A stretch of 64,000 nucleotides of DNA from Bacteroidota bacterium (GTDB taxonomy: Bacteria > Bacteroidota > Ignavibacteria > UBA10030), in assembly GCA_049523215.1 (NCBI GenBank), contig JBEKNC010000010.1:663-64662 (forward strand). The letters are read 5' to 3'. This document shows, in pieces, positions 8,150-28,192 of the stretch (positions are counted from its first letter, which is position 1; every line of letters begins with the position of its first letter). Below the pieces are notes generated by a model. That model saw only the letters and a list, made by a program, of their open reading frames with translations, did no database searches and was not told where the DNA came from. A program made the translations under genes and the position numbers.

Positions 8150-8166
8150 TTCACCGGATTCATTTC

Positions 8167-8195: not shown

Positions 8196-8245
8196 TATTC
8201 GGTATTCATTGAAGTATTGCCGTTCACTTTAAGGAGGGAATTCAC

Positions 8246-8686: not shown

Positions 8687-8770
8687 GTTTTCTAGTTGTT
8701 GTAATCGTTGCTTTTTCATTTCTTGTTTATTAAGTTGGTATTATTGTCAATGTTCTTTTTAATTCCAATT

Positions 8771-8977: not shown

Positions 8978-9040
8978 AACTATGTGCCTCATGAACCTTC
9001 GAGGGAAGGTGGTTCACGCACGTCTTCTTTGATGAGTGTG

Positions 9041-9076
9041 AAGCCCCAATCTTTGATGAAGGTTGGGGCTTTTTTT
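9041..9076 (+). terminator. Riboswitch expression-platform terminator
   Basis: AAGCCCCAA / TTGGGGCTT stem plus T run between aptamer and btuB start. Confidence 0.8.
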
Positions 9077-9106
9077 ATTCACATTCATTCAAAGGAGGAA
9101 GTACCG

Positions 9107-11056: not shown

Positions 11057-11114
11057 TTTGGTTCAAAAAGGAAAATAATGTATAATGAAACAGTTCATTT
11101 TATTTGGAGGATTT

Positions 11115-11642
11115 ATGCGTAATGTTCTTATCGGTTCAACTTTAATTCTGGCTGCGGCATTATCCCGGCTTCTTCCACATCCTGATAATTTCACTCCGAT
11201 AGCCGCGATGGCACTTGCAGGTGGCGTGTACCTTGAAAAACGATTCGCTCTCATCGTCCCACTTGCTGCGCTTGTGATCAGTGATTGCTTTATTGGTTTT
11301 CACAACACCATTCTCTTTGTCTATGGCAGCTTTATGCTCATCGGGTTTATGGGACTATGGCTGAAATCACATAAGAAATTCTTACCTGTCTTGGGGACTG
11401 CGCTTCTAAGCTCAATTCTCTTTTTTATCATTACTAATTTTGGTGTGTGGTTCACAGGCGGTGGATGGTTTTACCCGAAGACATGGCAAGGTTTTGTTGA
11501 ATGCTATGTCATGGCTATTCCATTCTTCCGGAATACGCTAGCAGGAGATTTGGTATTTACAGGAGTATTGTTTGGTTTGTTTGAATTATCTTTGCGCTCT
11601 ATCCGTGCTTCAGAAAAGAAAGCAATTCAAGCAAATTTATAA
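11115..11642 (+). CDS. DUF6580-like membrane protein, putative cobalamin transporter component
   Basis: SRLLPHPDNFTPIAAMAL motif, several TM helices, co-transcribed with btuB; SD GGAGG before ATG 11115. Confidence 0.7.
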   Translation: MRNVLIGSTLILAAALSRLLPHPDNFTPIAAMALAGGVYLEKRFALIVPLAALVISDCFIGFHNTILFVYGSFMLIGFMGLWLKSHKKFLPVLGTALLSSILFFIITNFGVWFTGGGWFYPKTWQGFVECYVMAIPFFRNTLAGDLVFTGVLFGLFELSLRSIRASEKKAIQANL

Positions 11643-11666
11643 TTATTCTCTCGTTGTGATTTGTTG

Positions 11667-11710
11667 ACGTCAGATTGGCTCGGAAGAAGCTCATCTGACG
11701 TTTTTATTTT
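11667..11710 (+). terminator. Intrinsic terminator of B12 operon
   Basis: ACGTCAGAT / ATCTGACGT stem plus T run. Confidence 0.75.
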
Positions 11711-12039
11711 TTAAGAACGAGTGAAATTCTGATGGAGAATTTTTAACCATACATGGAAACCTTGATTCCATTGGACTTTCTAACTTTTTTGATTGATACC
11801 TCGTCGAATGACATATATCAAGAATGATATTATTGCTTTTTTTCTTCCAATAGCATTTTGTAGAAAAAGCTCTATATTGAACCCCATTAAACTCAAACGC
11901 AATCATATGTCAAATAAAATAGAGCTTGCGTTGCGATGTTCAATTCATATCTCCCCGCGTTGCTACTGCACGATCTGTTTGTCCCTGTATAAACCCATTT
12001 GTGGAGATATTCGATAAAAATCAAAGTCATAAGGATACT

Positions 12040-13380
12040 ATGTCCGACTACATCAACAAAATTATTGCCCATGTAAAGGCAAAGAATTCCAATGAACCGG
12101 AGTTTCATCAAGCGGTAGAAGAAGTATGCGAGTCTTTGGAGCCGGTGTTTGCGCGTCACCCGGAATACCGTGCTGCAAAAATTCTTGAGCGTATGGTCGA
12201 ACCCGAACGGATTGTCATCTTTCGTGTTCCATGGATGGATGATCAGGGTGAAATTCATATTAACCGTGGATTCCGGATTCAGATGAACAGTGCAATTGGT
12301 CCATATAAAGGAGGATTACGCTTCCATCCATCTGTTACACTAAGCATTCTTAAATTTCTTGCATTCGAACAAGTGTTCAAGAATAGTCTTACAACACTGC
12401 CGATGGGCGGCGGCAAAGGCGGGGCAGATTTTGATCCTAAAGGGAAGAGCGATAATGAAGTGATGCGGTTTTGTCAAAGTTTCATGACAGAATTATTTCG
12501 TCATATCGGTGCAGATACAGATGTACCAGCTGGAGATATTGGTGTGGGAACACGTGAGATCGGATTCCTCTTCGGTCAATACAAACGGCTTACGACAGAA
12601 TTCACAGGTGTGCTGACCGGAAAAGGATTGAATTGGGGCGGTTCCCTTATCCGCCCAGAAGCAACAGGATTTGGGGTCGTTTATTTTACTGAGGAGATGT
12701 TAAAGACGAAAGGTTTGAGTATTGCAGGAAAAACAGTTGCAGTTTCCGGTTTTGGCAATGTTGCTTGGGGTGCGGTCACAAAAGTAAACCAATTGGGAGG
12801 GAAAGTGGTGACACTTTCCGGTCCTGATGGTTTCGTGTATGACCCAAATGGCATTAAAGGTGAGAAGATTCAATATATGCTTGAAATGCGTGCAAGTGCG
12901 AAAGATGAAGTAAAATCTTATGCCGATAAATTTAAGGCACAATTCTTTCCCGGTAAAAAGCCGTGGAGTGTAAAGGTAGATGTTGCCTTACCGTGTGCTA
13001 CGCAAAACGAGCTTGACGAAAATGACGCGAAAGAGCTTGTAAAAAACGGTTGCGTTTGCGTGTGTGAAGGATCGAACATGCCAACGACAATTTCGGGTCT
13101 CAAAATTTTTCATTCAGCGGGCATTCTTTATTCTCCTGGCAAAGCGTCGAATGCCGGAGGTGTCGCTACATCCGGATTGGAAATGAGCCAAAACAGCATG
13201 CGTTTGCCATGGCCGAAAGAAGAAGTTGATGCGCGATTGCATCAGATCATGAAAAGTATTCATGATACATGTATGCAGACCGCTGAACGATTTGGTGATC
13301 CGGGCAATTACGTCTTGGGTGCAAATATCGCTGGATTTCTGAAAGTCGCTAATGCTATGCTCGAACAGGGCTTGGTATAG
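12040..13380 (+). CDS. gdhA: NADP-specific glutamate dehydrogenase, copy 1
   Basis: [38 protein letters not shown] motifs; start ATG 12040. Confidence 0.95.
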   Translation: MSDYINKIIAHVKAKNSNEPEFHQAVEEVCESLEPVFARHPEYRAAKILERMVEPERIVIFRVPWMDDQGEIHINRGFRIQMNSAIGPYKGGLRFHPSVTLSILKFLAFEQVFKNSLTTLPMGGGKGGADFDPKGKSDNEVMRFCQSFMTELFRHIGADTDVPAGDIGVGTREIGFLFGQYKRLTTEFTGVLTGKGLNWGGSLIRPEATGFGVVYFTEEMLKTKGLSIAGKTVAVSGFGNVAWGAVTKVNQLGGKVVTLSGPDGFVYDPNGIKGEKIQYMLEMRASAKDEVKSYADKFKAQFFPGKKPWSVKVDVALPCATQNELDENDAKELVKNGCVCVCEGSNMPTTISGLKIFHSAGILYSPGKASNAGGVATSGLEMSQNSMRLPWPKEEVDARLHQIMKSIHDTCMQTAERFGDPGNYVLGANIAGFLKVANAMLEQGLV

Positions 13381-13488
13381 CAGATTCATATCTGAAGTAT
13401 ACTCGTTCAAGATATATTTCGCACTGCTTGTGTCAGGGAGTTTTCATACGATAGTTGATAGTGTCTGAAAAATTTATGCTATGCTCAT

Positions 13489-16470
13489 ATGAATCGATTT
13501 GATAAGTTTTCGACAGAAGATATATATGGAAGCCGCATCAAGTCGTTCCAGAAACTGATGCGCATAAAGGTGCGCGATATCCTGCTTGTCGCCAGCCTTT
13601 ATGATCAGTACCTGTTTGAAGAAGATGGCAGATTATATGAACTGATTCGACAGGAATTTCAAGTCCTCAATCTGAGTCACCCGCCAGAGATTACGCATGT
13701 GACCAGCGGTGAAGAGGCAATCGAGCTTCTTACCTCCGGCGAAAAATTCGATCTTATCATCACCACACTGCATATTGAAGATATGCATGTTATCCGATTT
13801 GCGCAAAAAGTACGACAGACAGGTATCGATATTCCCATGATCTTGTTGGCGTACGACAATCGAGAAAAAAAAGAAATCATCATGAATTACGATACATCGG
13901 TGTTCGATCGTATATTCATATGGACTGGCGATTACCGTCTCTTGGTTGCGATGATTAAGTATGTTGAAGACAGGCTCAATGTTCAAAGCGATACTGCGAC
14001 AGTTGGTGTGCAAGTTATTATTTTGGTAGAAGATGATATCAGCTTCTACTCCTCATATTTGCCGTTACTCTATACACAGATTCTCAACCAGTCCCAACGG
14101 CTCATTTCAGAAGGTGTCAATCTTACACATAAATTTCTCAGGATGCGGGCACGGCCGAAGATTTTGCTTTGTTCAACATACGAAGAAGCTTGGTCGTATT
14201 TTGAGAAATACGAAGACTTTGTGCTCGGCGTTATTTCGGATATTGACTTCCTTCGTGAAGGAGTCAAAGACTCTGAAGCAGGTTTCAAGTTTGCGGAAGC
14301 GGTGCGAAAAAAAAAGGAAGACATTCCCATCCTCCTTCAATCAGGCGATGCAAAGGCAGCGGCGAAAGCATTTGAAATCGGAGCTGCATTCCTGCAAAAG
14401 GGTTCACCGACACTCTTGCATGATCTGAATAACTTCGTTATGACGCATTTCGGGTTCGGCGACTTTATTTTTCGTATGCCGGACGGAACGGAAGTTGGAA
14501 GGGCGACGAACTTAAAACAGTTGGCAGAACATCTTCAAACTGTTCCGGATGAATGTATCCAATTTCATGCCAAGCGTAATCACTTTTCTAATTGGTTGAA
14601 GGCCAGAACGGAATTCTGGCTTGCTCATAAGCTTCGTCCGCAAAAGGTTGAAGACTTCCCGAGCACCGCTGAATTACGGAACGATTTAATCGGTGCTTTG
14701 CGGTTGTATTTAGAAACACGTCAGTTGGGCATCATTACGGAATTCTCCAAGGGATCGTTTGATCCTCAAAACAGCTTTGCGCGAATTGGTACCGGTTCGG
14801 TAGGGGGCAAGGCACGCGGCTTAGGTTTCATCAATACACTTATCAACAACTACAACATTCGTGATAAATTTGAAGGAGCGGAAATATCTGTTCCGTCGGC
14901 GGTAGTTATTGCGACGGATGTTTTCGACAGATTTTTATTGGAAAATAAACTTGAGAATTTTATTCTGGAATCAAAGAGCGACGAAGAAGTTCTCCAGCGT
15001 TTCACTGATGCACCGTACTTTCCACCTGATGTGGTCTTTCGGTTAATCGATTTTCTTGAAATTATGCACGAGCCGTTGGCTGTGCGCTCATCCAGTTTGT
15101 TGGAAGATTCACAATATCAGCCGTTTGCCGGTGTGTATCAAACCTATATGTTGCCGAACAAGAATTCCGATCCCACTGTCCGATTACATGAATTGTTGGA
15201 AAGCATAAAGCTCGTGTATGCCTCTACTTTCAGTAAACAAGCAAAAGACTACATGAAAGCAACCCCCTACCGGCTCGAAGAAGAGAAGATGGCGGTTATT
15301 ATCCAGCGAATGGTTGGTACATCACATCATAATCGATTTTATCCTGAATTTGCCGGAGTTGCAAAATCCTATAACTTCTATCCTGTACCACCGCAGAAAT
15401 CAGAAGATGGCATTGTTCAGGTTGCACTCGGATTAGGTTACACCGTGGTAGAAGGACATAACTCAGTTCGTTTTTGTCCCAAATATCCGCGTCACCTCAT
15501 GCAATTCTTTACAACAAAGGAGACGATTCGCAATGCCCAGCAAGAGTACCTTGCACTCGATCTCACGGCAACGTTCAGCCATGAAAATCATGAGACGCCG
15601 GATGTGATGATCAAACATTATGATCTGAGCACAGCAGAGGAAGATAATACGCTCTTTTATGTCGGATCCACCTATTCCCCGGAAGATGATTCTGTATATG
15701 ATGGAGTGTCACGTGCTGGGAAACGTGTTGTCACATTTGCCCCGGTCTTAAAACATCGGATATTCCCATTACCGGAAATTCTTGATTTAATTTTAGAGAT
15801 GGGGACATGGGGTATGGGCACACATGTCGAAATCGAATTTGCAGTCAATATGAATACATTACCGGGCGAACCGAAAGAGTTCGCAATGCTGCAGATTCGT
15901 CCCTTAGTTATGAACCTTGAATTTGAAGAGCTTGATGTTGATCAATTCGTTCGCGAAAACCTTATTTGTCAGAGCGAGCAGGTGCTCGGTAATGGTGCTG
16001 TCCAGGATATTTACGATATAGTCGTGGTGGATTCGGATAAGTTTGACAGATCAAAGAGTAAAGAAACGGCACGTGAAGTCAGTGAAATCAATGCCCGATT
16101 GCTTTCAGAACATCGACCATATGTGTTAATTGGAATGGGTCGATGGGGAAGCATGGATCCGTGGCTTGGTATTCCTGTCACATGGGACCAAATCTCAGGT
16201 GCGTCGGTGATTGTTGAGTCTGGTTTTAAAGACATCGATGTAACACCGTCACAAGGGTCGCATTTTTTTCAAAACATTACGTCATTTCGCGTGGGTTACT
16301 TTACTGTGAATGCCTCGCACAATCTTGGGTTCATCGATTGGGATTGGCTGAAAGTGCAGCCGGCGTTTCAGGAATTTAATCACGTTCGCCACTTGAGGTT
16401 TGATAAACCGTTCAGTGCTAAGATTAACGGACGGAAGAATAAAGGTGTGATTATGAAACCGGGGGAATAA
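13489..16470 (+). CDS. Receiver-domain / PEP-pyruvate-binding (PPDK N-terminal ATP-grasp) protein, copy 1
   Basis: Two REC-like domains, then GGKARGL, PLAVRSSSLLEDS..FAGVY ATP-grasp motifs; no pyruvate-binding barrel. Confidence 0.85.
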   Translation: MNRFDKFSTEDIYGSRIKSFQKLMRIKVRDILLVASLYDQYLFEEDGRLYELIRQEFQVLNLSHPPEITHVTSGEEAIELLTSGEKFDLIITTLHIEDMHVIRFAQKVRQTGIDIPMILLAYDNREKKEIIMNYDTSVFDRIFIWTGDYRLLVAMIKYVEDRLNVQSDTATVGVQVIILVEDDISFYSSYLPLLYTQILNQSQRLISEGVNLTHKFLRMRARPKILLCSTYEEAWSYFEKYEDFVLGVISDIDFLREGVKDSEAGFKFAEAVRKKKEDIPILLQSGDAKAAAKAFEIGAAFLQKGSPTLLHDLNNFVMTHFGFGDFIFRMPDGTEVGRATNLKQLAEHLQTVPDECIQFHAKRNHFSNWLKARTEFWLAHKLRPQKVEDFPSTAELRNDLIGALRLYLETRQLGIITEFSKGSFDPQNSFARIGTGSVGGKARGLGFINTLINNYNIRDKFEGAEISVPSAVVIATDVFDRFLLENKLENFILESKSDEEVLQRFTDAPYFPPDVVFRLIDFLEIMHEPLAVRSSSLLEDSQYQPFAGVYQTYMLPNKNSDPTVRLHELLESIKLVYASTFSKQAKDYMKATPYRLEEEKMAVIIQRMVGTSHHNRFYPEFAGVAKSYNFYPVPPQKSEDGIVQVALGLGYTVVEGHNSVRFCPKYPRHLMQFFTTKETIRNAQQEYLALDLTATFSHENHETPDVMIKHYDLSTAEEDNTLFYVGSTYSPEDDSVYDGVSRAGKRVVTFAPVLKHRIFPLPEILDLILEMGTWGMGTHVEIEFAVNMNTLPGEPKEFAMLQIRPLVMNLEFEELDVDQFVRENLICQSEQVLGNGAVQDIYDIVVVDSDKFDRSKSKETAREVSEINARLLSEHRPYVLIGMGRWGSMDPWLGIPVTWDQISGASVIVESGFKDIDVTPSQGSHFFQNITSFRVGYFTVNASHNLGFIDWDWLKVQPAFQEFNHVRHLRFDKPFSAKINGRKNKGVIMKPGE

Positions 16471-16515
16471 AGTTTAAATATTGAGAAAATCGATGCCATT
16501 TTCATATTTCCTTCC

Positions 16516-16523
16516 CTTAAGTG
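16516..16523. repeat. Left target-site duplication CTTAAGTG
   Basis: Identical to 21297-21304. Confidence 0.9.
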
Positions 16524-16539
16524 GGTAGTGGGCTACTTT
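16524..16539 (+). repeat. Left terminal inverted repeat
   Basis: GGTAGTGGGCTACTTT, exact reverse complement of 21281-21296. Confidence 0.92.
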
Positions 16540-16667
16540 AGATTCCATTTTTAGCTATTCTCGCTGTGATTCGGGAACTTATATTGCTTTTAGGTGTAAT
16601 GTTTATCATGTTTGTAGTGTCGTGCCAATAGCTCACTAAATACTTCACTAATTGTACGGGGTTCATT

Positions 16668-16955
16668 ATGGCTGCTCTCCGAGTATACTGTATCAATAAA
16701 CGAGAACATTATAACCCACATGAACGCATAACCCACATCGGTGGATTCAATGCAAATGAAACCCGATGGAAACTTACCGAAAACAACGCCATTGCTGGAA
16801 TTAAAAACGGAACATATAGTTTTTATGTTTCCATCAACGGTAAATCCGTCAATGTTATCATCGCCATACACAACGGTAGAGAATATCTCAAAACCGAAGC
16901 CGACGGATATGAACCAAATAACCTACTCAGCTTGCCAGAGTGTCCAAGCCTATAG
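16668..16955 (+). CDS. DUF3892-like small protein (passenger)
   Basis: RVYCINK...HERITHIG...YLKTEADG..NNLLSLPEC pattern. Confidence 0.75.
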   Translation: MAALRVYCINKREHYNPHERITHIGGFNANETRWKLTENNAIAGIKNGTYSFYVSINGKSVNVIIAIHNGREYLKTEADGYEPNNLLSLPECPSL

Positions 16956-16956
16956 G

Positions 16957-17166
16957 TTAAAATATTTTTCCAGTCATTGCTGTTTTGTATGGTGACATAG
17001 CAATATTGGGATTTATTACCCATGTCAACGCCTGTTGCATCGCATACAATTGACCATATCTGCCCGATGATATTGTCTTAGAATGTAGCTTATGCGAAAT
17101 ACTTTCAAGCTCCATCTTTATTCTATTCGGGGACGGGTTATTTATTTTAGGATATAGTTTCATCAT
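16957..17166 (-). CDS. Small hypothetical protein (passenger)
   Basis: 69-aa ORF convergent with the DUF3892 gene; no recognised motif. Confidence 0.45.
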   Translation of the reverse strand: MMKLYPKINNPSPNRIKMELESISHKLHSKTISSGRYGQLYAMQQALTWVINPNIAMSPYKTAMTGKIF

Positions 17167-17224
17167 TATAATTTACCGAGAAATGAGTGACACTACAACA
17201 CTAATGTGAGTACACTTGAAGACG

Positions 17225-17253
17225 TTGACTTTATCGAAGAGAATAACTATAAT
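17225..17253 (+). promoter_or_regulatory. Near-consensus sigma70 promoter with no downstream ORF
   Basis: TTGACT-N17-TATAAT. Confidence 0.8.
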
Positions 17254-17259
17254 TAGTCC

Positions 17260-17342
17260 CCTCGCGTCTTTTCCCTCCCCAAGAAAAACGCGAGCCGAAG
17301 CCTCGACAAATTTTGGCGTTTATGTCGAGGCTTCACTTTTTT
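17260..17342 (+). ncRNA. Candidate ~83-nt small RNA
   Basis: Promoter upstream, hairpin with C-rich loop, 12-bp terminator stem GAAGCCTCGACA/TGTCGAGGCTTC plus T run; no ORF. Confidence 0.55.
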
Positions 17343-18175
17343 TAAGCGGCTTTTCTAATCTGTGTTCCGAGTAATAAGTTTTCCCAAGTCCAAATTGTGT
17401 GTGTTACGTTTGCTTGCATTGCTGGCGTTACTCTCAATGATGAATGAATACGCATAAAGTTGTAATGATAGAAATGCAGTGCAACAGCACATTCAAGATT
17501 TCTTAACTTCTTACTGAAAGCATTTGTTAAACGTGTGAATCTTCTCATTTGCATTCTCATTGTAAGATTCTGTCTCTCAATGTAACTGGTAGAAATATGC
17601 TTTCTGTTAGGGCTTCCGATTAGCGGATTTATTATAACCCTCACAATCTGAGCGGGACTGTACCGTTTTTCACCTTTTCCATCATCTGCATATTCTTTGT
17701 GAATCTGTCCATAGTCAATGTCTTCACCAAAAACAGAATCTACAACATTAAAATAAGGCGCGAATGAATCCGTAGAGAGTTGAAAGCGTGTGCTGATTCT
17801 GTACTGCAAATCCTTTATGAATGATTGCGTCACTTGAATGTTTCTTTTGCCTACTTTGTAAACCGGAACAAGTTTCGTTTCTGCATCCATAGCTACAAAT
17901 ACATATTGATCGCCCAATTCTTTTGAATCATTCTCTGTGAGTTGTTTTTGTTTCTTCCCTACATAAGTCCAGATTTCATCTACTTGTACATATTTTGATT
18001 GAATGCCTACCATTTGAGTGTCAAGGATTTCTTTCGCTTGTTCTCCAGCTTCAATGAGTAAGCGCATAACTGTTTTCTTGTTCACGCCTGTGAGTCTAAC
18101 AGTGGAACGGATTGAGTTTCCTTCTACAAGGGAATTGAGAACTAAGATTTTCTTTCCGAGTGGTAATGAGTTCAT
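17342..18175 (-). CDS. IS1-family DDE transposase (single ORF, HTH plus catalytic core)
   Basis: HTH VEGNSIRSTVRLTGVNKKTV; VDEIW, LSTD, YIERQNLTMRMQMRRFTRLTNAFSKK. Confidence 0.88.
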   Translation of the reverse strand: MNSLPLGKKILVLNSLVEGNSIRSTVRLTGVNKKTVMRLLIEAGEQAKEILDTQMVGIQSKYVQVDEIWTYVGKKQKQLTENDSKELGDQYVFVAMDAETKLVPVYKVGKRNIQVTQSFIKDLQYRISTRFQLSTDSFAPYFNVVDSVFGEDIDYGQIHKEYADDGKGEKRYSPAQIVRVIINPLIGSPNRKHISTSYIERQNLTMRMQMRRFTRLTNAFSKKLRNLECAVALHFYHYNFMRIHSSLRVTPAMQANVTHTIWTWENLLLGTQIRKAA

Positions 18176-18195
18176 TGCGGTGCTCCAAGTTTAAC

Positions 18196-18224
18196 TTGAT
18201 TTTTTCCCGCAATGAACGTATATT
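18196..18224 (+). promoter_or_regulatory. Promoter firing antisense to the transposase leader
   Basis: TTGATT-N17-TATATT. Confidence 0.7.
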
Positions 18225-18230
18225 GAAACA

Positions 18231-18424
18231 GGGTCTTTGTCCGTTCACGCGGGCATTGATTTAGGGTTTGCAGGTGTTAGTAGCACTTGCAGACCCGCTT
18301 AAAAAAGCGGGTTACATAATAGTATTTTAAGCACGTTACTCATACACCGTTCCCTTCTGTGAAATGCTGATAACATTTCACTTTGATTGTTTTGAGACTG
18401 GCACTCACGTTGAGTGCCTTTTTT
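18231..18424 (+). ncRNA. Candidate ~195-nt structured antisense RNA
   Basis: Promoter, 13-bp hairpin whose two G-U wobbles work only on the + strand, further hairpins, terminator GGCACTCA/TGAGTGCC plus T6. Confidence 0.5.
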
Positions 18425-19091
18425 ATTTCGCAACATTTTTCTTCTTCAATTCTAAAAATCCAATAATAAAATCCAAATCATCAATAGTAATATTTGTCGG
18501 CAATGAAAATTCAAATTTATTTCCACTCGGAAGCTCAAAATTTTGCATTAATCCATGTGCCTGTAGAATCGTTGACACATTTTTTGTTTCTTCGCTCGGC
18601 TGTTTAACATCGTCTCTCAATGTCAAACTAAAATGCGACTTGGGACTAATGGCTTTAAAAGAATTAACCACAAATTCATACCAATAAGTAACGCCATCCC
18701 TGTCAATTCCTAACGATTTTAATAAAACTTGTTTTAATGTATCTGATTCTGGTGGCAACTTGGCATTCGGATAACGACCGAGAAGTTCTTGCAATACATC
18801 AACTTTATCAAAGGCTTTGTGAATGGCTTCTACATCTTCTCCAGCAACGGGATTAACAATTTGGACGGCAAGGTCTGTGAGCTGAATATGTTCACCTTGC
18901 TTATTCAATAAACCAAAGGTTTGAAGTGCGGCGATCCTTCGCGGGAAATAACTACTATTCTTACTTGTATTCAAAAGTTTCGGATCAAGAGAATCCATGT
19001 TGAATCGTTGATTAGCATGAATGACATAAATATCTTTGATAATCCTGATTGCGTCATTTAAATCAAGTGCAGGTGGATATTTAGTTGGCAT
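18423..19091 (-). CDS. Hypothetical protein, possible winged-helix fold (passenger)
   Basis: 222-aa ORF with SD AAAGGAG and its own promoter. Confidence 0.75.
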   Translation of the reverse strand: MPTKYPPALDLNDAIRIIKDIYVIHANQRFNMDSLDPKLLNTSKNSSYFPRRIAALQTFGLLNKQGEHIQLTDLAVQIVNPVAGEDVEAIHKAFDKVDVLQELLGRYPNAKLPPESDTLKQVLLKSLGIDRDGVTYWYEFVVNSFKAISPKSHFSLTLRDDVKQPSEETKNVSTILQAHGLMQNFELPSGNKFEFSLPTNITIDDLDFIIGFLELKKKNVAK

Positions 19092-19124
19092 CTTCGTTCT
19101 CCTTTATGTTATTCTTATTGATAC

Positions 19125-19153
19125 AATATAATACACGAATATATAAAAGTCAA
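19125..19153 (-). promoter_or_regulatory. Promoter for the 222-aa gene and probably the transposase
   Basis: TTGACT-N17-TATATT on minus strand. Confidence 0.75.
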
Positions 19154-19215
19154 GTACAAAATACAAATACTTGTATTTATTTATAGATGTGTGCATAAGA
19201 CTGGTTTTTGCTGGT

Positions 19216-19244
19216 TTGACAGAGCGCGCGAAAAGGTGTACTAT
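19216..19244 (+). promoter_or_regulatory. Promoter for the toxin-antitoxin operon
   Basis: TTGACA-N17-TACTAT. Confidence 0.75.
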
Positions 19245-19344
19245 CATGTGTAACAAAATGCACAGAATGTGGCTCCATTTTGTGCGTCGTTCTTTTACAT
19301 AAAAAATTCCGTCTATCATAGTACCTATTCAGAACGATGCTAAC

Positions 19345-19392
19345 AATTAACGCACAACGGATGAAGAATTAACGCACAACAGATGAAGAATT
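19345..19392 (+). repeat. 22-bp tandem repeat in the TA leader
   Basis: AATTAACGCACAAC(G/A)GATGAAG twice with one mismatch, plus AATT. Confidence 0.9.
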
Positions 19393-19401
19393 GAGGAAGA
19401 T

Positions 19402-19656
19402 ATGGAAAATGCAATGATAAACGAAAAAAGCCGGTTGAATTTAAACACAACCGGACTAAGCGAAAAAATGAATTTATGGGCGGAAGAACTCAATATGACT
19501 GCCACCGAACTCGTGCGTAAGGCATTAAGCGATTTCATTGACAGATTGGAACGAAATAGGCGTGAGCAGGAATTAGCAGAGGCTTGTCGGAATTACCGTG
19601 AATTCAACAAGAAGTTTTCCTCTGAGTGGGCACGATATGAGACGAGGATTAAATGA
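19402..19656 (+). CDS. Ribbon-helix-helix antitoxin (MazE/NdoAI-like)
   Basis: Beta strand-helix-helix pattern (MTATELVRKAL); 4-bp overlap with the toxin gene. Confidence 0.8.
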   Translation: MENAMINEKSRLNLNTTGLSEKMNLWAEELNMTATELVRKALSDFIDRLERNRREQELAEACRNYREFNKKFSSEWARYETRIK

Positions 19657-20006
19657 GTCATGTTCAAAGAGGGGAAGTATATATGGTTAAACCCGATCCA
19701 AGTATCGGTAAAGAACAGAAGAACAAAAGACCCTGTGTCGTGGTATCTTCAAATATAGTCAATTCAACTGCGGGGCTTATTGTTGTTTGTCCTGTCACAG
19801 AGGGGCTTGGATTGCAAGCCGATATAATTCATATTTCGTTGAATAAGGGTGAGGGTGGCTTAACAAAGGACTCTATTATTTTGTGCGATCAAATAAAAGC
19901 AGTAGATGAGACGCGAATAATAGAAAAGCTGGGCAATCTAAGTGGGGGAATCATGCAAAAGATAGACACCGCCTTGTGTGATATCCTAAATCTTCATAAG
20001 AATTAG
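19653..20006 (+). CDS. mazF: MazF/PemK endoribonuclease toxin
   Basis: RGEVYMV..DPSIGKEQ..KRPCVVVS, SIILCDQIKAVD. Confidence 0.93.
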   Translation: MSHVQRGEVYMVKPDPSIGKEQKNKRPCVVVSSNIVNSTAGLIVVCPVTEGLGLQADIIHISLNKGEGGLTKDSIILCDQIKAVDETRIIEKLGNLSGGIMQKIDTALCDILNLHKN

Positions 20007-20026
20007 CGTTACGATATATACCACGA

Positions 20027-20052
20027 TAAAGCCCCATTTGTGAGGGGCTTTA
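20027..20052. terminator. Bidirectional terminator
   Basis: TAAAGCCCC / GGGGCTTTA between convergent ORFs. Confidence 0.7.
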
Positions 20053-20304
20053 TTGTTTAATTAAAACGGTTTGCACTTCCCCATTTTCCACAAACAACGC
20101 ATATCCATTCGGCACAATTTCACCTTTTCTCACATCCCGCACTACCACATATCTTTCCCGCTTTTCAACGTGCCGATCTTTAGGGTTTCTGTGAACACAG
20201 GTAATATACCACTTATCCCCGCCGTTCATCGTTCGAGCAAAAGAGATAGCTTCACTCTTAGATAAGCTGTTGCTAATAGCGAACATTAATGTTTTATTTT
20301 TCAT
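20050..20304 (-). CDS. Small hypothetical protein (passenger)
   Basis: 84-aa ORF ending at the terminator; protein-like composition. Confidence 0.55.
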   Translation of the reverse strand: MKNKTLMFAISNSLSKSEAISFARTMNGGDKWYITCVHRNPKDRHVEKRERYVVVRDVRKGEIVPNGYALFVENGEVQTVLIKQ

Positions 20305-20338
20305 ATTATTGATGTATTAGGGCTTGGTTAAAAAATAA

Positions 20339-21196
20339 ATGAGCACAATAAAAAGACAAAAGAGAAATAAAAAGGAACAAGACAGCAATCTTCCTGTTTC
20401 TCTTAAAGATGAGTCCCAAAAACTTGAGGACAGAGAAAATCCCGAAAACATTACCGCTATTGAAGAATACAAAGCTCAGTCCGTAATAAAACCCATATTT
20501 ATTCCCAAAGAGACTCTTTTCGTCGAAGAAGGAAGATTTGAGAAAGTTAGAATTGCCCTTGAAATCATTGTTACAATTGTTGGACTCGGAACTCTTTGGT
20601 GGTTCATTCAATCCAGCGCAACTCAACACGCCGATTCTGTCAATGCTCTCAAATTGGCTAAAGAGTCCTCTGATTCTTCCGATATAGCCACAAAAAAATC
20701 TATTGCTCTTGCTGAAAGTTCTTTTGTCGCTACAAAAAAGAGCTTGCAACTTGCTCAAAGGAATTTTCAAATCGAAAATAGACCTTACGTGGGAATAAAA
20801 AATATTACTATTGATTCTTTGGAAGTTGGCAAGAAATATGTTATCAAAATCTTTTATCAAAACTTTGGGAAAATTCCAGCGCAAAACCTGATAATCACCG
20901 GCATAGGAGAACCACATACCATTAGGGAATATAATATTTTTAAATATGATACGACCATAGGAAGTATAGCTGTTGTGCCGCCCTCGGAAATTCTCTTTGC
21001 TACCCTTGTTAGTGATGGTAAGTTGACTAACGAAGAGATTGATAATTTTAGGAGGGGAAATTGGTATCTTTATGTTTATGGTATGATTACATATTCGGAT
21101 GTTTTCAATGGGAAAGACACTACAACATTTTGCTTCATGCTTGATTATTCCAGTAAAATGTTTTATGCTGGTCGCTATAATAACAGGATAAAATAA
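20339..21196 (+). CDS. Single-pass membrane hypothetical protein (passenger)
   Basis: Charged N-terminus, one TM helix, coiled coil, beta-rich C domain (ENRPYV...NFGKIPA). Confidence 0.7.
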   Translation: MSTIKRQKRNKKEQDSNLPVSLKDESQKLEDRENPENITAIEEYKAQSVIKPIFIPKETLFVEEGRFEKVRIALEIIVTIVGLGTLWWFIQSSATQHADSVNALKLAKESSDSSDIATKKSIALAESSFVATKKSLQLAQRNFQIENRPYVGIKNITIDSLEVGKKYVIKIFYQNFGKIPAQNLIITGIGEPHTIREYNIFKYDTTIGSIAVVPPSEILFATLVSDGKLTNEEIDNFRRGNWYLYVYGMITYSDVFNGKDTTTFCFMLDYSSKMFYAGRYNNRIK

Positions 21197-21280
21197 TATG
21201 AGCAAACCCAAACCAATAATTAGAACCGAAGTTAGAAACCCGACAAACCCAACCCCGCCCTTACCCCTATATATGGATCC

Positions 21281-21296
21281 AAAGTAGCCCACTACC
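21281..21296 (-). repeat. Right terminal inverted repeat
   Basis: AAAGTAGCCCACTACC. Confidence 0.92.
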
Positions 21297-21304
21297 CTTA
21301 AGTG
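21297..21304. repeat. Right target-site duplication CTTAAGTG
   Basis: Identical to 16516-16523. Confidence 0.9.
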
Positions 21305-21389
21305 TGGTAAGTAGGAAGTGAAAGGAAAAAAGCAGAAATTAGAGAGAAATTCTTTTATCTTTATCATACATAAATAGTTGAGAGTGAAT

Positions 21390-22013
21390 ATGGTTGCCTC
21401 AAAGCCATTGCGAGTTGTGATTGCAGATGATCAGGAGTCGATGAGTGCTATCATCCGGCGCCAGTTAGTGAAGATCGGACATGTGGTGATAGGAAAAGCA
21501 ACAAATGGACGGCAAGCAGTTGAAATGACACAGTTGCTGCAACCCGACATTGTGCTGATGGATATTGAGATGCCGGAAATGGACGGTCTGGAAGCAGCTC
21601 GATTGATTCATGAACAATGTCCTCGGCCCGTTGTGCTCCTCACCGGACATGATGATCCGGAGATGGTGCGCAGGGCGAGCCAATCAGGGGTCGGTGCTTA
21701 TCTCATGAAACCACCAAGCGCACCGGAAATTGAGCGGTCAATTATTATTGCAGTCGCACGGTTTGCCGATCTCATGGAACTGCGTCGATTAAATATTGAA
21801 TTGCAATTGGCTCTCGACAATGTCAAAGTGTTGAAAGGGCTACTTCCCATCTGTGCGGGCTGTAAGAAAATTCGCGATGATAAAGGGTACTGGGAAGGTG
21901 TGGAAACCTACATCAAGAAACATGCCAACGTAGAATTTTCTCATGGACTTTGTCCTGAGTGCTTAACTCGATTATATCCAGAGTACAAACCGAAAAAAAC
22001 TGATATGCCATGA
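21390..22013 (+). CDS. Response regulator with C-terminal Cys-rich (CxxC...CxxC) domain
   Basis: VIADD, VLMDIEMPEMDG, YLMKP; LPICAGCKKIRDD...SHGLCPEC. Confidence 0.88.
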   Translation: MVASKPLRVVIADDQESMSAIIRRQLVKIGHVVIGKATNGRQAVEMTQLLQPDIVLMDIEMPEMDGLEAARLIHEQCPRPVVLLTGHDDPEMVRRASQSGVGAYLMKPPSAPEIERSIIIAVARFADLMELRRLNIELQLALDNVKVLKGLLPICAGCKKIRDDKGYWEGVETYIKKHANVEFSHGLCPECLTRLYPEYKPKKTDMP

Positions 22014-22279
22014 TGCGTAATGTGCGTATTGGACTGGCAAGTCATTTGTTTAACTACTATTTATAATTTTTCCGATGTGAAAGGGAAGAAAATATATGAA
22101 AGGCTCGTCTCTGATTATGACGTGTCTTTGTTGTTTGTTTGTCCATACAAGTAATTAGTATTTGCTTTCTCTTCATTCCTTTGTAGGGTATTCCCTACAA
22201 CAATTTCATCGATTCTCCACTATTGTTTTTCCTCAAATCACTATAAGATATCATCAGTCAATTAGCTGTAATCTCATAA

Positions 22280-23677
<1,398 letters not shown>

Positions 23678-23773
23678 CCCGCGATACTGATATTTTAAAG
23701 ATCGAAGTGACCGTCACTTTCGAGTTTCCTCGCGGAAAGGGTGGCGGTCACTGAGATATGTGGGCGTGGATAT

Positions 23774-26751
23774 ATGGAAAAACATGTTGATCCGATCGTC
23801 AATCCGATAGACCCACCCTCAGTTGAATACGGGTATGGAAATCTGTTCTATGGTATCCAAAACCCAATGCGGATCCGCATCAGCAATGTTCTGCTTGTCT
23901 CCAGTCTCTATGATTTGTATCTCTTCGAGGAAGAAGGCCGCCTCTATGAGTTGAATCGCGGTGAATACGAGGGACTGAACCTCAGCCAATCACCGGAACT
24001 CACATGTGTTTCAAGCGGCAAGGAAGCGATGGTGCTTGCCAAGGAAGAGCATCGCTTTGACCTCATTCTCACCACACTGCATATTGATGATATGGAAGCA
24101 ATCGATTTTGCACGGATGGTGAAGCAATCCGGATTGAATATTCCCGTTGTGTTGTTGATGCACGATAATCGCGAACTCAAACATTTTATCGTGAGTCACG
24201 ATACTTCGATCTTTGACAAGATCTTTATCTGGCAGGGTGATTTTCGAATTATCATCGCGATTATCAAATTTCTTGAAGATCGATTGAACGTCGAACACGA
24301 CACACAGACAGTGGGCGTGCAGTCGATTATAGTCATCGAAGATAACGTCAAATACTATTCATCGTTTCTCCCCATTATTTACACAGAAATTCTGAAGCAA
24401 TCTCAGCGGTTGATCTCAGAAGGCATAGATCTCGGCCATAAATTTTTACGGATGCGTGCAAGTCCAAAAATTCTTCTGTGTAGCACCTATGAAGAAGCAT
24501 GGGCATACTACAAACGATACAAGAAGTTTTTACTCGGAATCATTTCCGATGTAGATTTTCCCCGTCAGGGAGTTCAAGACCCGCGTGCCGGTATCGATTT
24601 AGTGAAGACTGTACGTGGAGAGAAACCGGATTTACCGATTCTTCTCTTTTCAAATGTTCAAGAGAACCAGCAGCTAGCTGAAGATATTGGCGTATCGTTT
24701 GTCTTGAAAGAATCGCCGATGTTGTTGCAGGAACTTCAGCAGTTTATGGTATATCACTTCAGCTTTGGTGATTTTATTTTCCGCATGCCGGATGGAACAG
24801 AAGTCGGCCGCGCAAACGATATGAAGAGCTTGGAAGAAATGCTGAGAGTGGTGCCGGAAGAAAGTGTTCGGTATCATGCAGATCGGAATCATTTCTCCAG
24901 TTGGCTCAAAGCGCGTACGGAATTCTGGCTCGCCGATAAAATACGTCCGCGGAAAGTGACTGACTTTCCCAATCTTGAAGCATTACGAAAGGACCTCGTC
25001 CGATCCCTTCATCATTATCGCAATTTATGTCAACGTGGTATTGTTGCGAGCTTTTCAAAGGAAACGTTTGGTTCTGAAACAAGCTTTGCCCGTATTGGCA
25101 GCGGTTCACTCGGTGGAAAAGCTCGAGGACTCGGATTTGTCGATATGCTTCTCAATGACTATAATGTGCGGAATCGATTCAAGAAAGTGAATATATATGT
25201 TCCTTCAGCAGTTGTTCTAGGTACTGAGGTCTTTGATAAATTCTTGAAAGAAAACGACTTACGTGATTTTGCATTAACATGTAATGACGATCGGGAAATC
25301 ACTAAGCGGTTCCTTCTCGCAGAAAAGTTTCCTTCTGATATCTTGGCAGAACTTGCTTCATTTTTAGATCTTGTTCATATGCCATTAGCAGTTCGTTCAT
25401 CAAGCATGTTAGAAGATTCTCAATATCACCCTTTTGCGGGTGTATACGAAACATACATGATCCCTAATGCACATCCGAATTCATTGGTGCGTTTGAACGA
25501 CCTTCTTAACAGCATTAAACGAGTGTATGCTTCTACGTTCTATCAAAGCGCAAAAGAATATATTCGTGTCACATCATATCGCTTTGAAGAAGAAAAAATG
25601 GCGGTCATCATCCAATGTCTTGTCGGTAAAGTACATGAGAACAGGTATTATCCTGATATTTCCGGTGTAGCAAAATCATATAACTTCTATCCGATGACAC
25701 CACAGAAATCATCGGATGGAACAGCGTCTGTTGCACTGGGACTCGGGAAATGGGTGGTCGATGGTGGTAATACGGTACGATTTTGTCCGAAATATCCAAA
25801 AGATATTGGTCAGTTCTATTCCGTTAAAGAGACACTGAACACTTCCCAGAGATCATTTTTCTCGCTGGCACTTGATGCGAATTCCGATTTTGGAACCGAG
25901 ACTCATGATATGCTGGTGCAGCAGCATGAATTGGATGTCGCCGAGAAGGATGAGACACTGCAATCTGTCGGTTCAACCTATCTTCCGGAAAATGATGCCA
26001 TCTATAACGGTCTGAGCCGAAATGGCTTACGCGTCGTAACCTTTGCTCCAATTCTCCAAAATAATTTGGCGCCATTAGCAGAAATCGTCGAGTTGTTGCT
26101 TGATATGGGTGTTTGGGGGATGGGAACTCCAGTTGAAATTGAATTTGCGGTCAATCTCCATACATCCAAACAAAAAGTTATGGAGTTTGCATTACTGCAG
26201 ATGAGACCGTTTGTGATATCGAAGATGTTGACCCATCATCGCTCTTATGTCGGAGCAGTCAGGTATTAGGTCATGGATTGGTTGAGGGTATTTACGACAT
26301 TGTTGCCGTTGATTATCAACTTTTTAATAGGGCTGCAAGCCGGGAAGTGGCGGCGGAAATCGCTGCATTCAATGCTCAACTAATCAGAGAAAACAAGCCG
26401 TATCTGTTAATCGGTATCGGAAGATGGGGTTCACTCGATCCGTGGCTCGGTATTCCTGTAACGTGGGAGCAAATCTCAGGTGCGAAAGCAATTATCGAGA
26501 CCGGCTTTAAGGACATGTCGGTTACGCCCTCACAAGGTTCGCACTTTTTTCAAAATATTACTTCTTTTATGATCGGTTACTTCACTGTCGATGAGTCTCA
26601 ACAACAGGGATTTCTCAATTGGGATTGGCTGCTCAATCAATCGCCGTTAGAAAAAAAGCAATACACAAAATTATTCCGATTCGACAAACCTCTTATTGTC
26701 AAAATTAATGGACACCAGAACAAAGGGGTCATTCTGAAGCCGGAGGCATGA
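23774..26751 (+). pseudogene. Receiver / PPDK-like protein copy 2, frameshifted
   Basis: Collinear paralog of 13489-16470; frame changes at about 26215-26224, stop at 26269, homology continues in another frame to 26751. Confidence 0.85.
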
Positions 26752-26752
26752 C

Positions 26753-26941
26753 GTGACAAAAAATAAAAATATGTTCGATGCATGTCCTCACTGCGGTGAG
26801 AAACTCAGTCCATGGCAGCAAGTACTGCTAAGCGTTGACCGTGCATTGATGTGCAAGAATTGCTGGTACCGGATTCATTTGGATAGACATAAAGATACAG
26901 AAAAGTTGGATGATCAGTCCACACAGCAAGAGGAGGACTAA
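26753..26941 (+). CDS. Small zinc-ribbon protein
   Basis: CPHC...CKNC, tightly packed between neighbours. Confidence 0.65.
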   Translation: MTKNKNMFDACPHCGEKLSPWQQVLLSVDRALMCKNCWYRIHLDRHKDTEKLDDQSTQQEED

Positions 26942-26944
26942 GCT

Positions 26945-28192
26945 ATGCGTTCCTATAATTCATTTGATGTACTTCAACAACAGGTTGCTGAAGCAGCGAA
27001 AATTCTCAATCTCGATCAACCAACGACAGCCTTGCTGATGTGGCCGCAGAGGGAATTTAAGTTTACCATTCCGGTGCGTATGGATCATGGAGATGTGAAA
27101 GTCTTTCATGGATATCGCATCCAGTACAATTCTGCACGCGGCCCGGCAAAAGGCGGCATTCGTTTCCATCCGGATGAGACGGCGGATTCGATTCGCGCTC
27201 TTTCAGGATGGATGACATGGAAAACTTCAGTATTGGATCTTCCGCTTGGCGGTGCAAAAGGAGGAGTGGTGTGCAATCCGCGTGAAATGTCTGAACGAGA
27301 GTTGGAAAATTTAGCTCGCGCATATGTTCGTGCCGTGGTTCAATACATTGGTGTTGATAAAGATGTGCCTGCGCCTGATGTCTATACCAATCCACAAACG
27401 ATGGCGTGGATGATGGACGAATATGAAACATTGATGCAGGTTCACCACCCGGGCGTTTTTACAGACAAACCGCAGCAAATTGGCGGCACCGAAGGTCGTC
27501 GTGATGCAACAGCACGCGGCGGCGTTGCGGCTGTCCACGAGGCATGTAAGGTTCTTGGTGTTGATCCAACAGGTACGTTTGCGATTCAAGGATTCGGCAA
27601 TGCAGGTCAGCGCACCGCTTTGTTGCATCCTGAACTTCTTGGCGGCGGGAAACTTGTAGCGGCATGCGATTCACGCGGCGGTATCTTCAATTCGGATGGA
27701 TTAAATACAAAAGAATTGGTAACACATAAATTAAAAACGGGATCTGTAGTTGGATTTCCGGGTGCGAAGAACATTCCGCGGGATTCTGTCCTCGAGTTGG
27801 ATGTGGATATTCTCTATCCGGCCGCATTGGAAAATTCTATCAATGAAGACAATATGGAACGCATCAAAGCAAAAATTGTCTGCGAGCTTGCTAATGGTCC
27901 TACGACCCCTGAAGCAGATCTGGTCCTTCATAGACGCGGTATCCATGTTATCCCTGATATTCTTGCCAGTGCTGGCGGAGTCACGGTATCATACTTTGAG
28001 ATGGTACAAGATAAGAGTTCCTTCTTCTGGGATGAAGCCACAGTTCATGCACGACTTGAAGAGAAAATGAGAAAGGCATACCACACAGTTCAAGAAGCGA
28101 TCCGTGATAAAAAAGTCCACCCGCGGCTGGCAGCAATGGTCGTTGGTGTAGCGCGTGTTGCGGAAGCATGTAAGCTGCGCGGCTGGGTGTAA
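26945..28192 (+). CDS. Glu/Leu/Phe/Val dehydrogenase (third GDH, different subfamily)
   Basis: GPAKGGIRFHP, LGGAKGG, DVPAPDV, GFGNAG, ELANGP. Confidence 0.92.
   Translation: MRSYNSFDVLQQQVAEAAKILNLDQPTTALLMWPQREFKFTIPVRMDHGDVKVFHGYRIQYNSARGPAKGGIRFHPDETADSIRALSGWMTWKTSVLDLPLGGAKGGVVCNPREMSERELENLARAYVRAVVQYIGVDKDVPAPDVYTNPQTMAWMMDEYETLMQVHHPGVFTDKPQQIGGTEGRRDATARGGVAAVHEACKVLGVDPTGTFAIQGFGNAGQRTALLHPELLGGGKLVAACDSRGGIFNSDGLNTKELVTHKLKTGSVVGFPGAKNIPRDSVLELDVDILYPAALENSINEDNMERIKAKIVCELANGPTTPEADLVLHRRGIHVIPDILASAGGVTVSYFEMVQDKSSFFWDEATVHARLEEKMRKAYHTVQEAIRDKKVHPRLAAMVVGVARVAEACKLRGWV

Follow-up and report, generated by a model that had tools for sequence, protein, structure and literature searches.

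A 4.77-kb IS1-family transporter IS with a MazF-family toxin gene among its cargo, inserted upstream of a response-regulator gene

Within the analysed window, a 64,000-nucleotide stretch of DNA, positions 16524-21296 hold an element of 4,773 bp between inverted repeats (IRs), containing one intact DDE transposase gene and seven other open reading frames (ORFs; Table 1). The 16-mer GGTAGTGGGCTACTTT at 16524-16539 on the plus strand reappears, perfectly reverse-complemented, at 21281-21296. Allowing one mismatch, the two arms can be paired over 21 nt (16523-16543 with 21277-21297), and both repeats open with GGTAGTG. Directly outside lie two copies of an 8-bp target-site duplication (TSD), CTTAAGTG, whose boundary is slightly ambiguous: including the two final C of the right arm turns the repeated unit into CCCTTAAGTG. 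A preliminary description of this DNA had proposed these perfect repeats and the 8-bp duplication, and we confirmed both their coordinates and their reverse complementarity in the sequence; all the ORFs that it named, transposase and passengers alike, are present in the ORF list. Its view that cargo flanks the transposase on both sides also stood, but the transposase is not central, as it sits in the left third of the element (818-1652 of the 4,773 bp). The 16-mer occurs at only these two sites in the window, with one more at three mismatches (0.25 expected by chance), and no internal IR copy was detected in the element at up to three mismatches. With one transposase and zero internal repeats, the element is a unit and not a composite transposon, in agreement with the earlier reading. 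Its GC content is 37.8%, versus 43% for the window. A second copy was found in the window neither by tblastn with the transposase nor by blastn with the element, and Rfam matched no RNA family between 16000 and 21800 with E values up to 1 admitted. The subterminal ~150 nt likely hold transposase-binding or regulatory sequence.

Table 1. Coordinates of the features of the element and its borders, in window positions.
Feature	Coordinates	Strand	Basis or remark
Left TSD copy, CTTAAGTG, 8 bp	16516-16523		Directly outside left IR
Left terminal IR, GGTAGTGGGCTACTTT	16524-16543	+	Perfect over 16 nt, 20/21 extended; downstream side of transposase gene
Subterminal DNA, ~150 nt	16524-16674		76-79% conserved at DNA level with closest relatives L003, L004
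DUF3892 protein, 95 aa	16668-16955	+	Pfam PF13031, 72.9 bits
69-aa ORF, without family match	16957-17166	-	Tail-to-tail partner of DUF3892 gene
Hairpin, perfect 12-bp stem	17297-17334		Just past transposase stop codon
Single-ORF IS1-family DDE transposase, 277 aa	17342-18175	-	Pfam, NCBIfam, homologue conservation
222-aa protein, predicted N-terminal winged helix	18423-19091	-	248 nt upstream of transposase, same strand
Promoter-like site (TTGACT, 17 nt, TATATT; 10/12)	19125-19153	-	Consensus match only; 34 nt upstream of 222-aa gene
Two tandem 22-nt repeats, 91% alike	19342-19385	+	Between promoter-like site and antitoxin start codon
RHH-like antitoxin candidate, 84 aa (80 aa from ATG at 19414)	19402-19656	+	Position; sub-threshold PF07704
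MazF/PemK-family toxin, 117 aa	19653-20006	+	Pfam PF02452, 97.8 bits, whole domain length
Hairpin	20023-20056		Between convergent toxin gene and minus-strand 84-aa gene
84-aa protein	20050-20304	-	DNA-level conservation with L003, L004
285-aa protein, one apparent transmembrane helix (from sequence)	20339-21196	+	PHROG 9607; reads toward response-regulator gene
Right terminal IR	21277-21296	-	Opposite element end; pairs with left IR
Right TSD copy, CTTAAGTG, 8 bp	21297-21304		Directly outside right IR

The transposase belongs to the IS1 family, as had been suggested, with profile searches and named homologues in agreement. Pfam PF03400 (DDE_Tnp_IS1) matched with 26.1 bits, above its cut-off of 24.1, while NCBIfam NF033558 (transpos_IS1) gave the best match (E = 4.6e-15), its 56 bits lying below the 100-bit equivalog cut-off; the homologues number more than 8,000, and wherever NCBI or JGI names them, the name is "IS1 family transposase". 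Models of IS1595, IS256 and ISLre2 gave no match. Across 71 homologues, the predicted catalytic residues D66, D136 and E200, together with R207, are at least 97% conserved, and the C-terminal motif around the catalytic E (ERQNLTMR...) resembles that of IS1 InsB. The N-terminus has a helix-turn-helix (HTH) and lacks a zinc finger, with no Cys or His among residues 1-60. A promoter search revealed no consensus site immediately in front of the gene. The hairpin just past its stop codon is a possible terminator, and a terminator-like site was scored at 17307-17294 on the minus strand.

Among the other cargo genes, the DUF3892 gene and its 69-aa partner also adjoin the same element end in three relatives (L102, L009, and L007); a sequence search of solved structures with the DUF3892 protein gave no match below E = 0.1. 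The 222-aa protein is a recurring companion of this transposase clade, missing in the closest relatives L003 and L004. Its AlphaFold model (pLDDT 85) yielded weak Foldseek matches only in the PDB (E ~1e-2, TM ~0.26), to winged-helix N-domains of O-methyltransferases and MarR regulators, and its family profile gave no match below E = 0.1 to solved structures; the protein may regulate or assist transposition. We considered and rejected the idea that the whole clade shares one conserved partner gene ahead of the transposase: in profile comparisons, only clusters 7 and 12 join (the 222-aa family, probability 97.7%), and the other genes at this position are mutually unrelated. The minus-strand 84-aa protein is the commonest cargo of the closest subclade (17 loci) and is modelled by AlphaFold with a confident fold (pLDDT 87), for which no structure match below E = 0.25 was obtained. 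The 285-aa protein has a homologue in relative L019 (35% identical). PADLOC matched no defence model to the cargo proteins, and a PHROG scan of the cargo found only MazF-like families and families of unannotated function.

The MazF-family toxin is also matched by the NCBIfam MazF models and by PHROG 1936. The ORF upstream overlaps the toxin start by 4 nt and resembles PF07704 (DNA-binding antitoxin-type) weakly, at 19.9 bits and below the 28.3 cut-off; its position and this sub-threshold match make it a candidate antitoxin, and the tandem 22-nt repeats ahead of it are a candidate operator of the toxin-antitoxin (TA) operon. The module is absent from the closest relatives and is one exchangeable cargo module among several. 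Such a pair would probably penalise loss of the element; alternatively, it may serve in defence, like the restriction, Abi and exclusion genes of relatives. Type II TA pairs are also carried by Tn3-family transposons (PMC7157771), where the operon likewise lies inside the transposon and may keep the element stable or play a part during transposition. There, however, it is placed within the transposition module beside resolvase and transposase, whereas here it is exchangeable cargo.

The insertion site is a 138-bp gap between the gene of a PPDK_N-type 993-aa protein and a response-regulator gene (21390), with 4.8 kb of foreign DNA now between the latter and the gene upstream of it. In one relative, L164, this site is empty: a single copy of the duplicated sequence (CTTAAGCG) is present, the junction reads ...CCTTTTCTTAAGCGTAGTAAG..., the encoded 207-aa regulator is identical, and the flanks are 98.2-98.5% identical. 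Contigs of runs X2 and X3, from two sediment metagenomes, join 16515 to 21297 and skip 4,781 bp, i.e., 4,773 + 8. The empty alleles miss exactly the element and one repeat copy, and because of them the structure of the element cannot be put down to chance. The check for an empty site that had been suggested was thus positive, with a single CTTAAGTG-type copy and no element in L164, X2, and X3, and these same alleles corroborate the proposed recent insertion. Hence, the insertion postdates the split of the lineage from relatives that are ~98% identical in the flanks.

An identical element occupies the same site in L001 and L002, and all three contigs with the exact transposase represent the same locus. 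L001 was rejected as an independent strain, being identical to the window over 7342-26217. In sequencing run X1, the contig depth of the element (24.1) was about that of its flanks (23.6-26.4), which indicates one copy. As this exact element was found in one copy and at one insertion site, its current activity is unproven.

Relatives of the element gave a broader view of the same design. IRs of the GGT..TG type and a TSD of 8-9 bp bound 89 of 161 relatives, with a TSD of 8 bp in 87 and of 9 bp in 2 of these, and element lengths range from 2.0 to 5.65 kb. About 80 show the same order of IR, cargo, transposase, cargo, and IR. The cargo varies from one to the next, with only some modules in common, so that the expected copies with the same ends and different cargo were indeed seen. 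Among these ~80 delimited elements, no bare IS of ~1 kb was found; all carry cargo, of which the identifiable part is mostly restriction-modification, toxin-antitoxin, abortive-infection, and superinfection-exclusion genes. The clade occurs in Ignavibacteriota/Bacteroidota, Acidobacteriota, Desulfobacterota, Alphaproteobacteria plasmids, and other groups. Tandem or adjacent elements occur in relatives, for example in L004, and relative L168 adjoins a phage capsid gene. The window's element is a mosaic of modules also found in relatives, plus a putative MazF-type TA operon.

Compared with E. coli IS1, the element shares a DDE transposase that the IS1 models of Pfam and NCBIfam recognise, ends of the form GGT(A/G)(A/G)TG, and a TSD of 8-9 bp. 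Both ends fit the IS1-family pattern GGnnnTG, GGTAGTG standing beside the GGTAATG... and GGTGATG... of IS1A, and the TSD is 8 bp, which upholds the earlier comparison with IS1-type ends and duplications. IS1 itself, however, is 768 bp long and cargo-free and has the overlapping frames insA and insB, whereas the window's element has 4.77 kb, a single transposase ORF without the N-terminal Cys/His motif, and seven passenger ORFs. The canonical IS1 transposase arises from insA/insB' by a -1 frameshift, and InsA has a zinc finger; the 277-aa single ORF shows none of these canonical traits (two frames, -1 frameshift, zinc finger). ISfinder accepts single-ORF subgroups of IS1, so the single-ORF build does not exclude membership, and one IS1 subgroup in ISfinder, ISMhu11, reaches ~4.6 kb.

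Since the whole IR-to-IR segment is gone at the empty site, with no internal IRs and seven non-transposase ORFs, the element is a transporter IS (tIS), the accepted name for such an architecture, and a fresh member of an already known type. Siguier and colleagues reportedly described tISs for IS1595 and IS1 in 2009. ISs with passenger genes have been reported under this name for several IS families (PMC7986276, PMC9330008). A single transposase, IS-type terminal repeats, and passenger genes that lie inside the repeats and are dispensable for transposition are common to those tISs and to this one; the difference is that here a whole clade of ~80 delimited elements bears cargo.

We consider it very probable that 16524-21296 is one transposable unit, an IS1-family tIS that arrived with its cargo in an uncultured peat bacterium. 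The 277-aa transposase would bind both GGTAGTG... repeats through its N-terminal HTH and join the element ends to target DNA cleaved at an 8-bp stagger, the repair of which would produce the CTTAAGTG duplication. All DNA between the repeats travels with the transposase, i.e., the putative TA pair, the DUF3892/69-aa pair, and the 222-aa, 84-aa, and 285-aa genes. Eight "hypothetical" genes thereby become one annotated mobile unit, with an insertion dated to strain level. The element might instead have arrived by transposition and now be an immobile, fixed relic whose cargo persists for itself while the transposase is silent or inactive. Its presence as one copy in both the window and run X1, the one locus behind the three exact-transposase contigs, and the lack of a consensus promoter in front of the transposase gene would fit such a relic, although promoters of IS transposases are typically weak. 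We regard it as unlikely, given that the ORF is intact with every invariant catalytic residue kept, the 16-bp IRs are perfect, and relatives with ~98% identical flanks differ in whether they carry the insertion.

It is far less probable that a small IS sits inside an unrelated islet, in a composite or nested structure whose outer repeats are coincidental or derive from another element. Cargo on both sides of the transposase, a GC content that differs from the surroundings, and the adjacent elements of relatives such as L004 could be read in this way, but there is no second transposase, no internal IR even at three mismatches, about 80 relatives share the layout, and the empty alleles miss exactly the IR-to-IR segment and one TSD copy. 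We give hardly any credence to an integrative island or prophage remnant that was moved by a site-specific recombinase with the transposase as a mere passenger. No integrase or recombinase ORF is present, the element ends in inverted repeats rather than direct att repeats, tRNA and Rfam features are absent, and the 8-bp duplication of a non-conserved target is a signature of DDE transposases; these findings outweigh the island-like kind of the TA and small genes and the capsid gene beside relative L168.

The large family of this element appears to aim just upstream of promoters. In 43 of 80 relatives, a sigma-70-type promoter (TTGAC, 17 bp, TAnnnT) points away from the element and has its -35 box 15 bp downstream of the element end. 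The outward flanks of the window's own copy, TGGTAAGTAGGAAG... and GGAAGGAAATATGA..., have no TTGAC at +7. A preference for palindromic targets was weak (1.35 complementary pairs versus 1.05 in shuffles) and is superseded by the promoter motif. To our knowledge, promoter-directed insertion has so far been described only for the Mutator-like transposases of TnGBS, ISLre2, and ISKra4. The insertions of these elements lie 15-17 bp ahead of the -35 box in sigma-A promoters, with both orientations seen for elements whose IRs are near-symmetric (PMC3942029). The clade resembles them at the family level in its fixed-distance targeting upstream of promoters (15 bp, 43/80 sites), whereas their Mutator-like enzymes are unrelated to the IS1 superfamily and the window's insertion site is without the motif.

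Taken jointly, the data incline us slightly toward a very large, always cargo-bearing IS1-family clade with mostly defence and TA cargo, whose transposase sets the element end 15 bp upstream of the -35 box of an intact, outward-pointing sigma-70 promoter, as a second independent origin of such targeting. If true, this would suggest an IS1-type enzyme that recognises promoter-bound RNA polymerase or sigma factor, possibly helped by the winged-helix/HTH gene that most members have directly upstream of the transposase. Confirmation would provide a second, experimentally tractable system for a DDE transposase that reads promoter architecture, and would explain how small defence and addiction modules can disseminate to "safe" intergenic sites with genes left unbroken. 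The clade supplies ~80 cleanly delimited IS1-type cargo elements, and elements of the same design reside on plasmids of cultured Mesorhizobium, Hoeflea, and Acidiphilium.

The element is bounded by two exact inverted repeats (IRs) with an 8-bp target-site duplication, both lying where the preliminary description had placed them. As judged by a repeat finder, the IR pairing stretches to 21 nt with one mismatch; elsewhere in the 64-kb window, the IR 16-mer found one poor match at 3 mismatches, where 0.25 would be expected by chance. The GGTAGTG ends had been called IS1-type, and a direct comparison with the ends of E. coli IS1A (GGTAATGACTCC... and GGTGATGCTGCC...) identified them as such. The element spans 4,773 bp, has a GC content of 37.8% (vs 43% for the window), and contains every ORF that the first reading had named. 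The transposase, however, is off-center and falls within the element's left third. As a whole, the claim of a cargo transposon of the IS1 family was confirmed as an observation and is supported as an interpretation.

Coordinates of features in and near the element (window numbering)
Feature	Position	Strand	Basis or remark
Left IR, GGTAGTGGGCTACTTT	16524-16539	+	read from sequence
Right IR, exact reverse complement of GGTAGTGGGCTACTTT	21281-21296	-	read from sequence
8-bp target-site duplication, CTTAAGTG	16516-16523 and 21297-21304		directly outside both IR arms
Transposase, 277 aa	17342-18175	-	Pfam IS1 transposase model
Two tandem 22-nt repeats, AACAATTAACGCACAACGGATG / AAGAATTAACGCACAACAGATG	19342-19385		between promoter-like site and antitoxin start codon
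Antitoxin candidate, 84 aa	19402-19656	+	end overlaps toxin start by 4 nt
PemK/MazF toxin, 117 aa	19653-20006	+	Pfam match over full length
Other cargo: DUF3892 protein, 69-aa ORF, 222-aa ORF, 84-aa ORF, 285-aa ORF			
353-aa ORF	20306-21367	-	antisense to 285-aa gene, across right IR and duplication into flank
Segment missing from L164: second PPDK_N-type 1011-aa gene, 62-aa ORF, third glutamate dehydrogenase paralogue	23855-28016		4.2 kb

The proposal of a recent insertion was borne out by relatives that precisely lack the element. Next to its right end, the window encodes a 207-aa response regulator that recurs unchanged on a JGI contig (L164), where it lies 138 bp after the 993-aa gene with no element between; the junction reads ...CCTTTTCTTAAGCGTAGTAAG..., with the target in single copy, and the left and right flanks are 98.2% and 98.5% identical to the window. 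As separate evidence, contigs from two freshwater-sediment runs (X2 and X3) join position 16515 to 21297, skipping 4,781 bp, i.e., the 4,773 bp of the element plus 8 bp. Three recorded contigs encode the exact transposase, all of them representing this locus, and one contig of the locus (L001) is identical to the window over 7342-26217. Run X1, the peat run containing the element, has a contig depth of 24.1 over the element, the same as over the flanks (23.6-26.4), which points to a single copy; this run showed no empty-site joint.

Two further differences were observed to the right of the insertion. The ENA contig L001, identical apart from this, shows a net 25-nt length difference from the window and falls out of register from ~26218, inside the 1011-aa gene region. 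The 4.2-kb segment missing from L164 is replaced there by a junction with a 98-aa dehydrogenase fragment, reflecting either a paralogue expansion in the lineage of the window or, in L164, loss by deletion between paralogous dehydrogenase genes.

The 277-aa ORF narrowly cleared the Pfam IS1 transposase threshold (26.1 vs 24.1 bits), and its top NCBIfam match was IS1 (E 4.6e-15), yet under the equivalog cut-off. A protein search returned at least 8,000 relatives; among the matches listed, the named ones were all "IS1 family transposase" from metagenome-assembled genomes of Ignavibacteria and Bacteroidota, and plasmid homologues at ~44% identity bear the same name. An alignment of 71 homologues revealed an intact triad at D66 (DEIW), D136 (TDSF..Y), and E200 with R207 (ERQNLTMR), all at least 97% conserved, which we take to be the catalytic residues. 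The N-terminus contains an HTH-like stretch, and its first 60 residues hold no Cys or His; this transposase therefore lacks the zinc finger found in canonical IS1 InsA, which sets it apart from IS1 itself. From what is known of IS1 and DDE transposases, the N-terminal HTH would bind the terminal repeats, and a staggered 8-bp cleavage of the target, followed by repair, would produce the duplication.

Scans of genome and metagenome collections yielded 160 related loci, many of them with the same architecture. We delimited an element where the gene lay between two GGT..TG repeats with ≥15 of 20 matching positions and an 8-bp duplication flanked the pair. This was the case for 89 of 161 transposase copies (with a duplication of 9 bp in two), representing 82 distinct elements of 2.0 to 5.65 kb; none was a bare IS of ~1 kb. 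The IR variants follow subclades, with GGTAGTGGGCTACTTT in the closest Ignavibacteria group and GGTAGTGTCCTAATTT and GGTAGTGGCTGAATTT elsewhere. The same ends had been predicted to enclose different cargo in other copies, and cargo indeed differed for the most part between delimited elements; in common with the window were the 84-aa gene (17 loci), the DUF3892/69-aa pair (L102, L007, and L009), and the 222-aa gene. Even in the closest relatives (L003 and L004), whose transposase is 91% identical, DNA similarity was found in only three places: at the 84-aa gene, over the transposase from ~90 nt upstream to ~180 nt downstream of it, and in the terminal 150 nt of one end. Varied cargo and segmental similarity together show the element to be a mosaic of exchangeable modules around a conserved core.

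The same design is present on plasmids of cultured Alphaproteobacteria, in strains that are usable for experiments: Mesorhizobium loti CP050295 (L171; 3,370 bp, 20/20 IR match), Hoeflea sp. NZ_CP011481 (L172; 4,224 bp), and Acidiphilium multivorum NZ_CP041717 (L173; 2,634 bp). All three have an 8-bp duplication and IRs matching at 19-20 of 20 positions, and their annotation names just an IS1 family transposase alongside hypothetical, HTH, or XRE genes. We also observed two IR-bounded units without a transposase, one of 1,209 bp with a homologue of the 285-aa gene (L019:6453-7661; flanks TTCTTTGC and TTCTTTCC) and one of 1,682 bp in which a homologue of the 222-aa gene is the sole cargo (L170:4787-6468). 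These look like non-autonomous cassettes, potentially movable in trans.

ISfinder includes an IS1 subgroup that reaches ~4.6 kb. IS derivatives with passenger genes form an accepted category, the transporter IS (PMC7986276, PMC9330008); these articles cite Siguier et al. 2009 for a discussion of the frontier of IS1 and IS1595 with transposons. TA pairs inside transposons are documented in the Tn3 family (PMC7157771). The element is therefore new and unnamed but of an already known kind, a transporter IS, and in itself ordinary to a specialist.

What merits follow-up is the family-level pattern of targeting and cargo. We reconstructed the pre-insertion sites for 80 distinct elements, i.e., 160 flanks (loci L003-L162 and L173; examples are L005, L006, L009, L011, L012, L042, and L059). 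TTG occurred at offset +7 outward from the duplication in 44 of the 160 flanks (43 of 80 sites), against at most 8 occurrences at any other offset and 1 in the opposite-strand control. Exact TTGAC was present in 19 of these 44 flanks, and 35 had TAnnnT at +29 to +31, corresponding to a -10 box after a 16-18-bp spacer. Judged by these boxes, the motif has the make-up of a sigma-70-type promoter, facing away from the element (29 on the upstream side of the transposase gene, 15 on the other), with 8 + 7 = 15 bp between the element end and the -35 box; the Acidiphilium plasmid copy fits this rule. The motif is absent from the window's own insertion site; promoter-upstream targeting is a property of the family and says nothing about the window's copy. 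Insertion 15-17 bp upstream of sigma-A -35 boxes, called unusual among prokaryotic elements, was described for TnGBS, ISLre2, and ISKra4 (PMC3942029), which thus share the insertion geometry of this clade, whereas their transposases are Mutator-like and those of the clade IS1-type. A limited literature search found no published promoter-upstream insertion for IS1-type elements. In addition, 9 of the 80 sites adjoin another GGTAGTG-type end, with end-to-end elements sharing one 8-bp duplication (L004:2207-11367 and flanks of L009, L038, L041, L062, L066, L073, L075, and L086). In L004, AAAATTTT is found before, between, and after two distinct elements, which means that one target position has been hit on two occasions.

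Among 147 family cargo ORFs (≥100 aa, one per cluster), few had Pfam matches. These were mostly restriction-modification proteins (C5 and N6/N4 methylases, Mrr, Tsp45I, Vsr, Eco57I), AIPR, SieB, and SocA/Panacea, domains of the PemK, NYN, PIN, and dCTP-deaminase-like types, and HTH regulators. In 13 elements, an HTH_17 gene of 65-75 aa is the immediate upstream neighbor of the transposase. Profile comparison joined clusters 7 and 12 (97.7% probability) into the 222-aa family, whose members lie upstream of the transposase on its strand, at a distance of 215-310 nt in the window, L006, L012, L166/L167, and L168, and also in L046 and, at 561 nt, in L124. In L166 and L168 it has diverged similarly to the transposase (51-52% vs 49-50% identity). 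It is a frequent partner of the transposase, but not an obligatory one, because it is absent from the closest relatives. AlphaFold models the protein (pLDDT 85) with an N-terminal winged helix, and all structural matches to the model were weak; the protein is a putative regulator or helper.

Within the window's cargo, a full-length match (97.8 bits) identifies the 117-aa ORF as a PemK/MazF toxin; an 84-aa ORF upstream overlaps it by 4 nt and matches a DNA-binding antitoxin-type family only weakly. The tandem repeats are a candidate operator for autoregulation of this TA operon, and the pair may penalize loss of the element or act in defense. The remaining cargo (DUF3892, 69-, 222-, 84-, and 285-aa) gave no PADLOC matches, and an Rfam scan of the element gave none either. 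The 84-aa cargo protein has a confident predicted fold (pLDDT 87), for which a search with the predicted model found no solved relative. The 285-aa gene points toward the response-regulator gene at 21390, with no terminator-like site detected in between, so read-through is possible. The 353-aa ORF opposite the 285-aa gene is almost certainly spurious, as it spans the edge of the element, although a longest-ORF gene caller could still choose it.
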